A stretch of DNA of 64,000 bases, taken from the NCBI GenBank assembly GCA_026627065.1, contig JAPNUO010000010.1, positions 14,179 through 78,178 on the forward strand. Reading direction: 5' to 3'. Both the position numbers and the translations under genes were made by a program. Below the pieces are notes generated by a model, which did not search any database, had not been told where the DNA came from, and was given only the letters and a program-made list of their open reading frames with translations. Source of the DNA: Bacillota bacterium (GTDB taxonomy: Bacteria; Bacillota; Sulfobacillia; Sulfobacillales; Sulfobacillaceae). Positions 23,248 through 27,757 of this stretch are shown here, piece by piece (the first letter of the stretch is position 1; each line of letters opens with the position of its first letter).

Positions 23248-26073
23248 TTAGGCGTCTCTCGGTGGCTCCTTTCCATCATACCGGATCTTGTGCCCCGGCG
23301 CCGATGCCTCCCCTCTTCCTTCCCCCATTCGGCGCCAGCGACCTTGCTCCGGATCGTACACCGTCATGTGAATCCAGGCATTTTTCACCCAGTCGCGAAC
23401 GCTTGGCTGACGGTCCAAGGTTTCCGCAACCCGCTTCCACGGAGCCTCCACCACCACAAAGAGGCGCATTGGCTCGTGGACTAACCGGCCTTGGGCATCG
23501 CGCACCGACTGCCAGGGCAATCCGGTCTTTAAGTCGCTCTGTTTTCCACTCATAACCCCAAAATGTCCGACCACATTGGCCACCACTTTGCTGCCGCCGC
23601 CATAGTGCGCGTTGTCCACCGCGGAAAAGTAATAGGCCATGTTGATGTGGTGCGCGACCGCCAAAGGCCCCTGAAAAATTTCAGAAAGCCACTGCCCATG
23701 GGGGTCGCGACGGTAATCATAGGTGTACAAGAAGAGCCGATCGTCGCCCTTTAGGTGCCGTGTCCACACCCGCCGCCCTATCACCAGCGCCGCGTGGCCC
23801 GAGAGTCCCCACTCGGGCCGCGTCTCGGCCCAGGCTTGGCTGCGAAGCTCGACCTCGCGCAACCCATCGGCTCGAGGGCGATGCCGGCGAGTCCCTGTGG
23901 AGCATGCTCCCAAGTGTTCCCAGCGCTCACGGGCATGCTGCCGGCCGGCCATCTTGAGGTCTTCCCAAAGGCCCTGCACCAGGCGGCGGTGCGTCTCCGG
24001 AACTTGATCCACATCGTACAACGTCACCTCATCGGTCGTGGTGTTGTGCTCGCCGCCGAGGAACCAGGTCTCGTCGGGGATGGCAAAGCCGCGCTGCGAC
24101 AAGATTCTGCGAATAGCGGACTGGTTGCAGAGGGTCGCCAGCATGCGCGCGTTGAGTCCGCTGGAATGGCCGCCGGCGGCGCCGCACTGGAGTGTGCTGG
24201 CCCAGGGATTGTTGGTGGTGTGGCTTCCGTGCCCCATCCACACCACGAGGGGGCCCAGCGCTTCAACGTCTCCGAGACTTTTCAGCGCGGACGCGACCAG
24301 ATCGGCTGCCCGCTCAAACGACAGGTCGACGAGCATGGTATCGTCGCCTGGAGACTGGTGCCGCCGCTGGTCAAAACCTTTGAGCAGGCGGGGCGCCCAT
24401 GTGCGCAGAATGGCGTACCCGCCCCAGAGCCAGCCGGCGCTCTCGACCAGCACCAGGGAAGACAACCAGCTTCCCTTTAAGTGATGATACATCGAAACCA
24501 GGGCCGAACCCCCGCATTGACCAGAAGCGTTTTTCATTCGCCACACGGTGACGTTCGGGCAAGCCACAGGCGGCCCCTGGTACGTCTCCCGCCCGCGACT
24601 CTCGTCCCGCACGGTCATCGCGAGGCCAAAAAACCCGGCCATGCCGATGGTTCGATACCGTCCCAGGTCTTCCAGATGACGCCTGAGCCCCTCGGAGCGG
24701 GGGTCCATGCAAAAGATCAGCGAAATAGGCCGTGCGGCCGACGGCGCGGACGGGTCGGGGGCCTCTTCCCACTGCCGAAGCAGAGCGTTTTGCCAATGTC
24801 GTTCCAAAGCTTCTTGCCAAAGCGCTTGGCGCTGGTTCGTCGAGAATCGCGTCGCCCACGAAATCCATTCCCTCAGTTCTAAGGGATTCACTTTTTGAAC
24901 TTCTTCGACGGAAAGCGTGAGCACATCGGCCAGGTGATACAGCGTCGTGAGTTCGCGTTCCCGCAGCGCGGCCTGACGCGACGCATAAAGGCGGCGCGCG
25001 TGGAGCTCCCAGTCGCCACCGCGAGGTCGTCCAAAGCGCCTGAGCCCTTTTCCGACGGTGACGCTGCGGACGTAAAACTCGGCCAAATGACCTTCCCAAT
25101 ATTCTCGCAGGCAATCAAAGCGGCCGGGCACCCCAAAGGCGCGCCGGGCCGCGCGCGACGTCAACGCGACCTCATAAGCCAGGCGAACCGCAAGATATTC
25201 CCCTAAAGTCATGCGCGGCAACGCGGATGACCCGCCGAACCGGCGCACCTCCCCCCAGCGAATCCATCCCGCCCAGCCGCGCAGCTGGCCGAGATGGGAT
25301 GCGAGGTATTGGGGCCACAGATGCTCGGGAACCCCCAAAAGCGTCAAAAGCTCCGCCAGGGCAGCCAACGGATCGAAAGGCAATAAAGCCACTAAGGGTC
25401 CGAGCGTTCTCGACGAGCGATGAAGGCGACACCAGGCCACATAAAATCCTTGGTCGCGGTAAGGCATGGCCGAGGCCACCTCATGTTGGGCAAAAAAGGC
25501 CGACAACCACGGCACCAGCGCCTGATTGAGCGCCCCCGCCAAATCGCGGCCAATCAGACGTCCCACCCATTGAGCCATGGTCTCCCCTGGTTCACCTAAG
25601 GCGTGAAGCCACCCTACGGCTTCTTGGCGCCAGGCGCCGGCGTCTCCCGCTCCCGAGCGAGGCAACAAGTGCGCATCCAAAGCCCGCCGCCACGACTCCG
25701 GCAACGGGCGCTCATCCCCCACCAGCACGCGTCGAATAATTTCCTGGGGAGAACCATAACGCCTGAGGCTCAACGGCGGATCCGGGGGTCTGAGGTGCCG
25801 AATGGCCTCCTCGAGGTCGCCATCGGTAATCCGCCCAGCTCGGTACCATCGCCGATATTCCGATGCCGGAAGATATCCCTCGCCGCCAAGCAGCAGCTGC
25901 CCCATTTTTACGGCCTCCCCAAAAGGGGTGTCGGTAAACCCGCTCAGGGGATTCATGGCGGCATACGCATCAACCGGCCCAAGGGGCGCCACCACGCGGC
26001 GCGCGGCCTCGAGCGCGGCTCGCGCCGACTCTCTGAGACTCTGGGATTGAATGGTTGCGTGAAGATTTTCCAT
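23248..26073 (-). CDS. dabA: DUF2309-family protein, DabA-like (putative catalytic subunit of a DAB inorganic-carbon pump)
   Basis: 941 aa, no TM segments. Blocks: MNPLSGFTDTPF, IFCMDPRSEG, GHGSHTTNNPWASTLQCGAAGG, HEPMRLFVVVEAP...NAWIHM. Confidence 0.88.
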   Translation of the reverse strand: MENLHATIQSQSLRESARAALEAARRVVAPLGPVDAYAAMNPLSGFTDTPFGEAVKMGQLLLGGEGYLPASEYRRWYRAGRITDGDLEEAIRHLRPPDPPLSLRRYGSPQEIIRRVLVGDERPLPESWRRALDAHLLPRSGAGDAGAWRQEAVGWLHALGEPGETMAQWVGRLIGRDLAGALNQALVPWLSAFFAQHEVASAMPYRDQGFYVAWCRLHRSSRTLGPLVALLPFDPLAALAELLTLLGVPEHLWPQYLASHLGQLRGWAGWIRWGEVRRFGGSSALPRMTLGEYLAVRLAYEVALTSRAARRAFGVPGRFDCLREYWEGHLAEFYVRSVTVGKGLRRFGRPRGGDWELHARRLYASRQAALRERELTTLYHLADVLTLSVEEVQKVNPLELREWISWATRFSTNQRQALWQEALERHWQNALLRQWEEAPDPSAPSAARPISLIFCMDPRSEGLRRHLEDLGRYRTIGMAGFFGLAMTVRDESRGRETYQGPPVACPNVTVWRMKNASGQCGGSALVSMYHHLKGSWLSSLVLVESAGWLWGGYAILRTWAPRLLKGFDQRRHQSPGDDTMLVDLSFERAADLVASALKSLGDVEALGPLVVWMGHGSHTTNNPWASTLQCGAAGGHSSGLNARMLATLCNQSAIRRILSQRGFAIPDETWFLGGEHNTTTDEVTLYDVDQVPETHRRLVQGLWEDLKMAGRQHARERWEHLGACSTGTRRHRPRADGLREVELRSQAWAETRPEWGLSGHAALVIGRRVWTRHLKGDDRLFLYTYDYRRDPHGQWLSEIFQGPLAVAHHINMAYYFSAVDNAHYGGGSKVVANVVGHFGVMSGKQSDLKTGLPWQSVRDAQGRLVHEPMRLFVVVEAPWKRVAETLDRQPSVRDWVKNAWIHMTVYDPEQGRWRRMGEGRGEASAPGHKIRYDGKEPPRDA

Positions 26074-26179: not shown

Positions 26180-27757
26180 TTGTCCAACGTGCCTATCTTC
26201 CCTGGGAACCCTTCTCTGCTGGCCGGCGCCATCCCTTGCGCTGCCGTTTTGGGGGGACTCACAATGCGCATTCTCGGTCGGAGATTTCCGCGTGTCAGCG
26301 CCCAATTGACGTTGCTTTTTCTCGGCATGGCCTGGCTTCTCGCCGCCGCCCTCTTGATCGGGGGGGAAACGACAGCACACGGCCCAGAGATGGCCACGTC
26401 CCTCATCGCCTGCAACCGCGTGACTCTTCTAGTCACGGTCTATGTCCTGTCCCTGAGCAACCTGGTGCACCGCTTCGCCTGGCGCTACCTGGAGGGCGAG
26501 TCGGACCCGCACCGCTTCCTCGCCCATGTCTCTTTTGCCACGGCAGCTGTGGTGCTCTTTGTCCTGAGCGGCAACCTCGCACTGTTGTGGGGAGGATGGG
26601 CCCTCGGAGACTGGGCGCTCCTTCATCTCCTCGCGCACCCTTCCCCGCAGTTTTGGCGGGCCGCCCCATCGCGGCGCGCGACCCGGCTCATGATCCTGGG
26701 AAATTTGGCGCTGGGCGGGGCGGTAGCGGCCGCGTTTTTGACCGACCATACCTTCTCCATCGCCGCACTGGTCGCGCGCACGACGGCCTCTGGGTTTTTC
26801 TTCCCCCTCCTTGCGTTCTTGCTGGTGCTCGCGCTGATGGTGCGATCGGTGCAGTTTCCCCTGCATTTTTGGCTGGTTGACACGCTGGACGCGCCGACGC
26901 CGGTTTCGGCGCTGATGCATGCGGGGTTGGTCAACAGCGGAGGCTTGCTGGTGGTAAAGCTGGCGCCGCTCTGGAACCGCATCCCGGGAGCCTTCCCCGT
27001 CCTCTTTGCCATCGGCCTCGTGACGGCGCTCTTCGGGCACCAGGCGATGGCTGTCGCTCCGGCCATCAAACAGCGGCTAGTCTTTTCCACCGTGAGCCAA
27101 ATGGGATACATGGTCATGGAAGCCGGCTTAGGTTTATTCCCTTTGGTGATCTGGCACTTGATGGCCCACGGGTTTTACAAGGCTACGAGCTTTCTTCACT
27201 CCGGAGAGCTCACCTCTCCCCTGCCGGCCCACCGCCACCCAGGGGCTGGAGCCTGGCCCATCGGAATCCCCGCGCTTCTCCTGGCCATTCTCATCCTGGT
27301 GCACAAGGCGCACCAGGCGGGACAATCGCCTGCGCTTTGGCCCTTTCTCTTGGCCTTTGCTGTCGAAGCGCTGGTGGCCATTCGCCTGAGCCACAGTCTC
27401 CCGCGCCGCAAAGGGCTTCTCGTCGCATCCCTGGGCGTGTGGTCGGCGGGTTATTTTCTCGCGACCCGCGAATTTTCCCGCGTCCTGGCCGGCGTGCTGC
27501 CGCCGGCGCCTTCCGGCCTGGTCGGCTGCGATCCGCTGATGCTGGAAGTCGTTTTGGGGCTGCTCCTTGTGGGCCGGCTTTTCTCTGCCGACGCGCGCAC
27601 TCCCCGCCTTTTCTCGGCATCGGCCCAGCGCTGGCGCGATGCGCTGTACCGCTGGCTGTTGCACGCCGGATTCGGCGGCTTCCCGAACCCCTCCGCACTG
27701 ATGCCCCGCAATCAGCCCCTAGCGTCCAATACACTCCGATCCTTGCAGCGAGAATAG
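26180..27757 (+). CDS. dabB: NuoL/NuoM/MrpA-like proton-conducting membrane subunit, DabB-like
   Basis: 525 aa, polytopic. PF00361-type core [33 protein letters not shown] and [12 protein letters not shown]. TTG start behind AGGAAAGGA, with an alternative GTG at 26189. Confidence 0.85.
   Translation: [525 protein letters not shown]

Follow-up and report, generated by a model that had tools for sequence, protein, structure and literature searches.

A Sulfobacillus-type DabA/DabB (MpsAB) pair, probably an inorganic-carbon uptake complex, and a candidate winged-helix regulator at its divergent promoters

The window, i.e. the whole 64-kb stretch of DNA that was analysed, carries the two genes of a DAB-type system together with a small candidate regulator gene and a predicted promoter-operator block (Table 1). 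Both ORFs of the pair lie exactly where the original prediction had placed them, all peptide blocks quoted there occur in the two translations, and its minus-strand codon arithmetic holds (C455 at 24711-24709, D457 at 24705-24703, H615 at 24231-24229 and C630 at 24186-24184). The ORF map corrects it in one respect: dabA and dabB are divergently transcribed and share no operon. Its account of the neighbours had also overlooked the winged-helix (wHTH) ORF between an MFS gene and dabA, which has the same orientation as dabA and starts 12 nt past the stop codon of that gene. A small ORF at 22881-23156 (-) was rejected as a gene, as it overlaps the regulator out of frame and is featureless. The 64-kb window contains no nuo, mrp or carAB genes, and no carboxysome or RuBisCO genes were found near the pair. 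The start of dabB is uncertain and may be the TTG at 26180, the GTG at 26189 or the ATG (Met29) at 26264 used by NCBI; the helix encoded ahead of Met29 has a counterpart in the relative from locus L002, the alignment beginning at residue 10.

Table 1. Features of the dab locus, in window coordinates
Feature	Position	Strand	Basis
dabA (mpsB), 941 aa	23248..26073	-	PF10070, 9rd0_A alignment, residue columns in 183-184 relatives
dabB (mpsA), NuoL-like membrane subunit	26180..27757	+	PF00361, 9rd0_B, residue columns in 110 relatives
Putative winged-helix transcription regulator, 97 aa	22942..23235	-	Pfam HTH_24, MarR_2, DUF7343; AF2 wHTH model
Divergent promoter-operator block	26083..26129	.	Promoter scan, PWM site, conservation in four clade loci

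The predicted assignment to PF10070 and PF00361 was borne out by profile searches, with both matches far beyond chance. DabA matches PF10070 over residues 22-901 and profile positions 2-747 of 747 (E 1.1e-210; 702 bits, cut-off 25), and DabB matches PF00361 with E 1.3e-26. The NCBIfam profile search returned no model for DabA. The best solved relatives of both proteins come from the same structure, PDB 9RD0: DabA2 of H. neapolitanus (9rd0_A, E 5.3e-79, aligned residue by residue) for DabA and DabB2 (9rd0_B, E 9.5e-34) for DabB. All NCBIfam matches of DabB are sub-threshold (211 bits against a cut-off of 380), including the second-best model, PRK08601. Complex I NuoL and Mrp MrpA were considered as identities for this protein and rejected: their NCBIfam models score far under the cut-offs, and the window is free of nuo and mrp genes.

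The active site of DabA can be followed in detail in this alignment. The zinc-site residues C455, H615 and C630 correspond to C351, H524 and C539 of the H. neapolitanus protein and are invariant in 183/184 aligned relatives; the numbering C351/D353/H524/C539 given in the original prediction agrees with both the 9rd0_A alignment and the structure paper. The Asp-Arg dyad of the CxDxR motif is kept as D457 and R459 in FCMDPRSE. All four residues that had been called zinc ligands are thus present, but in the solved DAB structure the metal is held by Cys2His and a water, and the equivalent of D457 holds that water and is not a ligand. The lid motif GI(A/G)GFFG reads GMAGFFG (477-483) with A479 and F481 retained, and the active-site Leu that replaces the Gln/His of beta-carbonic anhydrases is kept as L757, together with W755, in RPEWGL (AWAETRPEWGL = 747-757). 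Column counts over 183-184 relatives also show N621, H676 and D681 to be retained. The Asp of the DW motif, found in 165/183 relatives, is A747, and the channel residue H684 is replaced by Y783. DabA had been described as a soluble protein, which is not simply so. In this family a helical hairpin penetrates the membrane, and both this elbow/finger hairpin and its Glu (E444 in H. neapolitanus, Glu in 154 of 184 relatives) are present here, the latter as E544 in LVESAG.

In DabB, the proton path H247, H326, H330 and K334 (H260, H339, H343 and K347 in H. neapolitanus) is invariant among 110 relatives. The Lys/Asp pair of TM7 and TM5 (K235/D185) is R222/N175 here. Arg at the TM7 position occurs in 14 of the 110 relatives, including those from loci L001 and L002, and alanine mutants of this pair in DAB2 lose 30-60% of growth yield and stay partly active.

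The pair thus belongs to the DabA/DabB family and retains every residue proven essential in DAB1 and DAB2; according to the structure papers, DAB is non-functional when these residues are mutated. The core of the original prediction, an energy-coupled CO2 hydratase of the DAB type, is backed by the profile, solved-structure and residue-level comparisons. We consider it likely (probability roughly 0.8), judging from the sequences, that the two genes specify an inorganic-carbon uptake complex of the DAB (DabAB/MpsAB) type with two subunits. The NuoL-like DabB would pass cations, most likely protons, down the membrane gradient. DabA would dock on DabB and wedge its helical hairpin into it, and its buried, beta-carbonic-anhydrase-like zinc site would catalyse the hydration of cytoplasmic CO2 unidirectionally, yielding bicarbonate. 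CO2 diffusing into the cell would therefore be captured as HCO3- and become available for carboxylation. That this particular pair is active, which ion it uses and what it does for the cell are inferred, and published accounts disagree on whether DAB systems use H+ or Na+.

The original MpsAB model offers a different picture, a Na+-coupled bicarbonate transporter that imports HCO3- and does not hydrate CO2. It is reflected in the name that NCBI gives to the window DabA, "Na-translocating system protein MpsB", and in published work on S. aureus and B. subtilis, where MpsAB is described as a Na+/bicarbonate transporter that rescues Na+-transporter mutants. Ion handling may also differ in the clade of the window protein because Arg replaces the TM7 Lys. 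However, the buried zinc carbonic-anhydrase site is intact and the CO2 tunnel and the bicarbonate-disfavouring Leu are all conserved, DAB2 works without sodium, and DabB has no known separate anion path. We therefore regard bicarbonate import as unlikely for this locus.

A further deviation concerns the coupling loop NNPxxxxLDCGACGG, which is typical of the family and in DabA1 is reported as strictly conserved. In the window protein (residues 621-635, NNPWASTLQCGAAGG) the NNP, the ligand Cys and the GG are kept, the Asp is replaced by Q629 and the second Cys by A633; the reading QCGAAGG for the usual DCGACGG, already pointed out in the original prediction, is real. The Asp is present in 142 of 184 relatives and the second Cys in 177. 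The DabA sequences lacking the second Cys are six in number and form one clade, Sulfobacillus included. The window protein groups with these Sulfobacillus-type sequences, apart from the Bacillus/Staphylococcus type, and in the clade the TM7 Lys of DabB is also exchanged for Arg. In all four clade loci with known context (the window, L001 from Sulfobacillus, L002 and L085), dabB and dabA are divergent and accompanied by the regulator; in L086, a fragment, the regulator follows dabA. The loop change is a trait of this subclade and gives no ground for exclusion from the DabA family.

One could read the same changes as decay, with the loss of the Asp and the second Cys having broken the coupling between DabA and DabB and left an inactive enzyme or a non-vectorial carbonic anhydrase. 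The equivalent Asp of T. albus, D708, is a proposed DabA-DabB bridge and possibly a proton relay, exchanging one residue in these loops (N530D or W656R) is enough to uncouple DAB2, and the window protein has lost the DW Asp as well. Against this, both ORFs are intact, all catalytic and proton-path residues are kept in six clade members reaching down to 36% identity, and the dab genes stay adjacent with promoter and regulator conserved. Moreover, the Asp is missing in 42 of 184 relatives and is hence not universal. Degeneration of the clade therefore seems very improbable. The Sulfobacillus-type DAB clade swaps both the Asp proposed to link proton flow and catalysis and a Cys in a loop reported as strictly conserved, and would thereby offer a natural experiment on whether coupling requires the bridging Asp.

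The region between the divergent genes has a compact organization. A promoter scan placed a -35 element (TTGACA, 26083-26088) and a -10 element (AATACT, 26107-26112) facing dabB, and a TATAAT on the minus strand (26129-26124) facing dabA. The block also includes an imperfect palindrome, ATATGAAATATATATCGTGA (26088-26107), and a further half-site TCGCTA at 26116-26121. The predicted operator, TCACGAA-N6-TTCGTGA, sits within it. A promoter-operator block of about 55 bp is near-invariant in the four clade loci, the DabA proteins of which are 36-49% identical. The operator matrix scores 27.6 bits at the dab site, the sole strong site in 64 kb (maximum of shuffles, 18.7). Of 80 loci of the regulator family, 47 have their best match no more than 400 nt upstream of the regulator gene, as compared with 3.3 expected from uniform placement and a mean of 8.3 (maximum 16) for permuted matrices; the matrix had been refined iteratively on the same loci that were later counted, and only the position is independent. 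Two other patterns were discarded: one with N10 spacing had the wrong spacing and matched nothing relevant, and an N8 pattern from four loci was circular, since it matched only those and one other.

These observations suggest that the wHTH protein, presumably co-transcribed after dabA, would bind the palindromic operator inside the overlapping divergent promoters. The position of this operator would make the protein a repressor, controlling dabB and dabA-regulator together. We somewhat favour this regulation of the dab locus through the predicted operator. The protein is 71% identical to the product of the gene beside Sulfobacillus dabA. It matches Pfam HTH_24, MarR_2 and DUF7343, and its AF2 model (pLDDT 82) is a wHTH fold; its NCBIfam ArsR score of 33 bits is below the cut-off of 55. 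Matches of the model to PDB entries are weak (TM about 0.55-0.6), and comparison with PDB and NCBIfam revealed no solved or curated relative.

Of 80 species loci of the regulator family, 32 have a carbon-uptake system as neighbour, namely DAB in 22 and SbtA in 10, and 48 have no carbon transporter within 6 kb. Among the 77 flanking ORFs of 46 loci without DAB or SbtA no common neighbour was found; these are heterogeneous, with isocitrate dehydrogenase at 4 loci, ABC transporters at 3 and others at one or two each. As a tentative reading, these proteins of about 93 aa could form a widespread, apparently undescribed family of inorganic-carbon-uptake regulators acting via TCACGAA-N6-TTCGTGA at DAB or SbtA/SbtB promoters, possibly sensing carbon status, and ranging over Bacillota, Chloroflexota, Actinomycetota, Planctomycetota, Verrucomicrobiota and other phyla. 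The part of the literature covered yielded nothing relevant on a wHTH-type regulator of DAB or SbtA, and to our knowledge hardly anything has been described on how these transporters are regulated outside cyanobacteria. The small protein, encoded next to them in many phyla and paired with a predicted operator, is a candidate that lends itself to direct testing.

The original prediction had further connected the pump to the neighbouring argR-argFGH genes. A pump dedicated to arginine synthesis, with dabB co-transcribed with argR-argFGH and providing bicarbonate for carbamoyl phosphate, would fit the 89 nt between the dabB stop and the argR start on the same strand, with no terminator-like site found between them, and carbamoyl-phosphate synthase is among the bicarbonate-dependent enzymes. 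But none of the three relatives with known dabB flank shares this arrangement: L002, the closest, shares the MFS, YkuD, S11 and MurE side and yet has ETF genes beyond dabB, and L085 and the Sulfobacillus locus have unrelated genes and no arg genes there. An ARG-box search gave no above-chance signal, either in the window as a whole (9 matches, 6.6 expected) or in the dab promoter, the only good site lying upstream of argF, outside the dab promoter region, and carAB is missing from the window. The proximity is best read as chance adjacency, and a dedicated arginine pump is highly unlikely. Bicarbonate supply to carboxylases, carbamoyl-phosphate synthase included, is the standard reading of MpsAB in heterotrophs; the specific link to the arg genes is not supported.

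The pump itself adds little. Systems of the DAB/MpsAB type have been described in autotrophs as well as heterotrophs, their occurrence in Sulfobacillus and further Firmicutes without carboxysomes is already in print, and NCBI already names the window DabA MpsB, so that a claim to novelty finds no support. The pump is an ordinary member of the DabA/DabB (MpsAB) family, from a small divergent Sulfobacillus-like branch. What is unusual lies in the clade: the lost loop Asp and second Cys, the TM7 Arg of DabB and the divergent genes. The pair could show whether the loop Asp and Cys are required.

How does the locus compare with known systems? In cyanobacteria, the LysR-family factors CcmR/NdhR and CmpR lie beside carbon-uptake genes such as sbtA and ndh-cup and control them. 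The analogy with the window regulator is functional only, as the latter is a single-domain protein of about 93-97 aa, predicted to have an ArsR/MarR-like fold and lacking the effector domain of LysR factors. Like S. aureus MpsAB and B. subtilis NdhF-YbcC (MpsB), the window pair is a Firmicute DAB homologue with no CCM context that presumably feeds bicarbonate-dependent anabolism; theirs, however, are mpsA-mpsB operons (with canC in B. subtilis), whereas the window genes are divergent. H. neapolitanus DAB2 (9RD0) is the best solved match for both proteins and shares the two subunits without DabC, the zinc site, the Asp-Arg dyad, the lid, the elbow Glu, the Leu and the His/His/His/Lys path of DabB. 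The window pair differs from it in sequence (about 30-35% identity over the C-terminal core), in the longer N-terminal domain of its 941-aa DabA, in the changes from LDCGAC to LQCGAA and from TM7 Lys/Asp to Arg/Asn, and in its divergent genes away from carboxysome and RuBisCO genes, as opposed to the single DAB2 operon. With DAB1 (DabABC) of T. albus and H. neapolitanus it shares the DabA fold motifs and the DabB proton path. DAB1, in contrast, requires the third membrane subunit DabC; the window pair is flanked by the wHTH gene and argR instead, and is therefore of the two-subunit type.

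The two ORFs in which the original prediction recognized a DAB-type inorganic-carbon pump, 23248–26073(-) and 26180–27757(+), were confirmed in the sequence. All quoted peptide blocks were found in their translations, and minus-strand arithmetic agreed with the four codons assigned to DabA ligands. In Pfam, PF10070 (DabA) matched residues 22–901 with an E-value of 1.1e-210, covering profile positions 2–747 of 747, and the membrane protein matched PF00361 (E 1.3e-26). The sole match of DabA among solved structures was DabA2 of Halothiobacillus neapolitanus DAB2 (9rd0_A, E 5e-79). 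For DabB, the partner subunit DabB2 (9rd0_B, E 9.5e-34) ranked first by a narrow margin over the best NuoL chain (8e9g_L, E 2.8e-33), and every score against the NuoL and MrpA models of NCBIfam was far under the cut-off; NCBIfam holds no DabA model. The two genes diverge from an AT-rich spacer of 106 nt (26074–26179).

NCBI already holds the window DabA as MCY0880012.1 ('Na-translocating system protein MpsB', from a Bacillota MAG), and other proteins of the locus as MCY0880013.1 and MCY0880011.1 from the same MAG. The deposited DabB begins at Met29 and has 497 aa (window 26180–26264 region). This start is probably too short, since the 20-odd residues before Met29 align with the homologue from L002, the closest relative of the window, and a Shine-Dalgarno sequence (GGAAAGGA) precedes the GTG at 26189.

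The more novel lead lies outside the original finding. A 97-aa winged-helix ORF, missed at first reading, shares the strand of dabA, starts 12 nt past its stop codon and matches HTH_24, MarR_2 and DUF7343 in Pfam. Its Cys16 is almost invariant. It is 71% identical to a small gene beside Sulfobacillus dabA and thus far better conserved than the pump proteins; the gene also follows dabA in L002, in the related locus L085 and in the fragment L086. The family, of proteins of about 93 aa, is large and strongly conserved, with more than 1830 homologues, many of them 70–90% identical, and at least 592 loci in species-representative genomes from many phyla. An AlphaFold model shows a minimal winged helix-turn-helix (pLDDT 82) with only weak matches in the PDB (AspA, AntR, ArsR/SmtB and MarR proteins). 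We found neither a solved sequence relative nor a curated family, and no published description in the literature searched.

Among 80 family loci kept for a neighbourhood count (tblastn, 6-kb flanks), 22 carried DabA and DabB and 10 carried SbtA, together 32 of 80 or 40%. If a genome carries one or two loci of this kind, we would expect well under 1% of random 12-kb stretches to hold DAB or SbtA genes. In Caldinitratiruptor the family gene immediately precedes SbtA, and on a Chloroflexi contig it immediately precedes SbtA and P-II. The loci without DAB or SbtA have heterogeneous neighbours. In a Chloroflexaceae locus (L010, 4788–5600) the regulator lies beside a PF00361-like gene and DabA was not detected within 6 kb; the gene could have another partner, or the assembly could be incomplete at this point. 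Another locus (L060), on a GC-rich contig labelled as part of a cyanobacterial MAG (Synechococcus sp. UW140), carries the regulator and a DAB pair closest to actinobacterial DabA; binning error or gene transfer may be responsible.

The dabA-dabB spacers of the window, L002, L085 and the Sulfobacillus locus L001 share a near-invariant block of about 55 bp between unrelated flanks, and the DabA proteins of these four loci are only 36–49% identical. A similar block of the same architecture precedes sbtA in the Caldinitratiruptor locus (L003, 7351–7395). Refinement of an operator matrix over whole loci, which made no use of position information, gave the consensus TCACGAA-N6-TTCGTGA. In 47 of 80 loci its top match fell within the 400 nt that precede the regulator gene, compared with 3.3 expected under uniform placement and a mean of 8.3 (maximum 16) for 30 column-permuted matrices. 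The operator site at 26088 scored 27.6 bits, against 15.3 for the next independent site in the 64-kb window and at most 18.7 in shuffled sequence. Because the predicted operator overlaps the -35/-10 spacer, we infer that the regulator is a putative repressor that would close both divergent promoters, and that it may also control itself through a transcript shared with dabA.

Features of the dab locus and its relatives (window coordinates unless a locus is named; DabA residues from the alignment of 184 sequences)
Feature	Position	Strand	Remark
Winged-helix regulator ORF	22942–23235	-	97 aa
Regulator copies in clade loci	L001 4038–4364; L002 7001–7279; L085 5367–5660		
Conserved spacer block	window 26083–26129; L001 7877–7925; L002 4035–4090 (rc); L085 2065–2120 (rc)		
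-35 TTGACA	26083–26088		facing dabB
-10 AATACT	26107–26112		facing dabB
Imperfect palindrome ATATGAAATATATATCGTGA	26088–26107		fills -35/-10 spacer
Extra half-site TCGCTA	26116–26121		
TATAAT	26129–26124	-	facing dabA; our own reading of the sequence
DabA zinc site and dyad	C455, D457, R459, S460, H615, C630		
DabA lid			GMAGFFG
DabA elbow	E544		
DabA coupling motifs	N621-N622-P623; W755 and L757		RPEWGL with W755 and L757
DabA water network and tunnel	H676, D681, L721, R752, I799, P803		

The window also carries argR, argF, argG and argH downstream of dabB, and the pump had been proposed as a possible source of bicarbonate for carbamoyl phosphate. The 89-nt gap between dabB and argR contains no terminator-like site that we could find, so read-through may occur. 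Nothing points to a specific link of the pump to arginine synthesis: L002 shares the gene order of the window on the side of MFS, YkuD, S11 and MurE, yet has ETF genes past dabB, and the dabB-arg adjacency is also missing in L085 and Sulfobacillus. ARG-box-like matches in the window do not exceed chance level. The top one (TGCATAGTTATTCA, 28363–28376, two mismatches) lies immediately upstream of argF, an arrangement that would be consistent with ArgR control of argFGH. The true argH start probably lies further downstream than in the mechanical ORF, because the latter runs 58 nt into the end of argG (30549–30606). A scan of ORFs throughout the window showed no RuBisCO or carboxysome genes, as first noted, and no carbonic-anhydrase, carAB, nuo or mrp genes. 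The accepted role of Firmicute MpsAB is general bicarbonate supply to carboxylases.

The region is bracketed by a pair of paralogous L,D-transpeptidases of the YkuD type that carry PG_binding_1 domains (18181–19866(+) and 32053–33402(-)); with an S11 carboxypeptidase and a Mur ligase they form a cell-wall neighbourhood that L002 retains. At 44001–48000 the GC content drops to 0.51–0.53 from about 0.61 elsewhere, and this stretch, with an amino-acid permease and a GntR/UTRA regulator, may be acquired DNA. Four long ORFs matched no Pfam family at the thresholds applied: 60763–63510(-), 915 aa; 54437–56401(-), 654 aa; 33438–34835(+), 465 aa; and 20258–21223(+), 321 aa.

The pump proteins themselves are divergent. 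A word-index search for DabA relatives found nothing above 33% identity over the full length, and the exhaustive HMMER search for DabA relatives (3361 family clusters) found one fragment at 51% and remaining relatives at 43% or less. The nearest DabB, from Sulfobacillus thermosulfidooxidans, is 33% identical; its gene likewise diverges from dabA, whose 1062-aa product is 36% identical to the window DabA and has a loop reading LNCGAVGG. We aligned the window DabA with 183 relatives from both searches and two loci. It deviates at Q629, where 142 of the 184 sequences have Asp, at A633, where 177 of the 184 have Cys, at A747 (165 with Asp) and at Y783 (153 with His). The second Cys of the loop is missing from only six DabAs of this panel (window, L002, P0155, P0156, P0230 and Sulfobacillus), which formed one clade in an exploratory neighbour-joining tree of the conserved core, calculated without support values. 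The dab genes diverge in every clade member of known context (window, L001, L002 and L085); in contrast, all 22 DAB loci reached by another route are co-directional with dabB first. These substitutions, together with the gene order, make the clade a mildly interesting natural experiment on the DabA coupling loop.

In the solved structure of DAB2, C351, H524, C539 and a water bind the zinc, the D353-R355 dyad stabilises this water, L658 occupies the beta-CA Gln/His position, and a finger hairpin with E444 enters DabB (Lo et al., 2026 preprint, 10.64898/2026.03.13.711513). DabB of that system has NuoL-like proton-path residues and an ion pair, K235/D185, whose replacement by alanine costs only 30–60% of growth yield (Lo et al., 10.64898/2026.03.13.711513). 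For DAB1, whose structure has also been solved, the motifs GI(A/G)GFFG, NNPYESALDCGACGG and DW(xxx)RPEWGL, the DabB residues H229, H308, H312 and K316, D708 as DabA-DabB bridge and DabC as a DAB1-specific third subunit have been described (Phillips et al., 2026 preprint, 10.64898/2026.05.01.722082). The window DabB keeps H247, H326, H330 and K334, invariant among 110 relatives; in the same alignment the TM7 Lys is R222, an Arg shared with S. thermosulfidooxidans, and its Asp partner is N175. The pair is therefore a secure member of the DAB family, and with no DabC-like gene on either flank it belongs to the two-subunit type. MpsAB homologues of Sulfobacillus have already been listed in print, and the window pump is a further member of the known DAB/MpsAB type.
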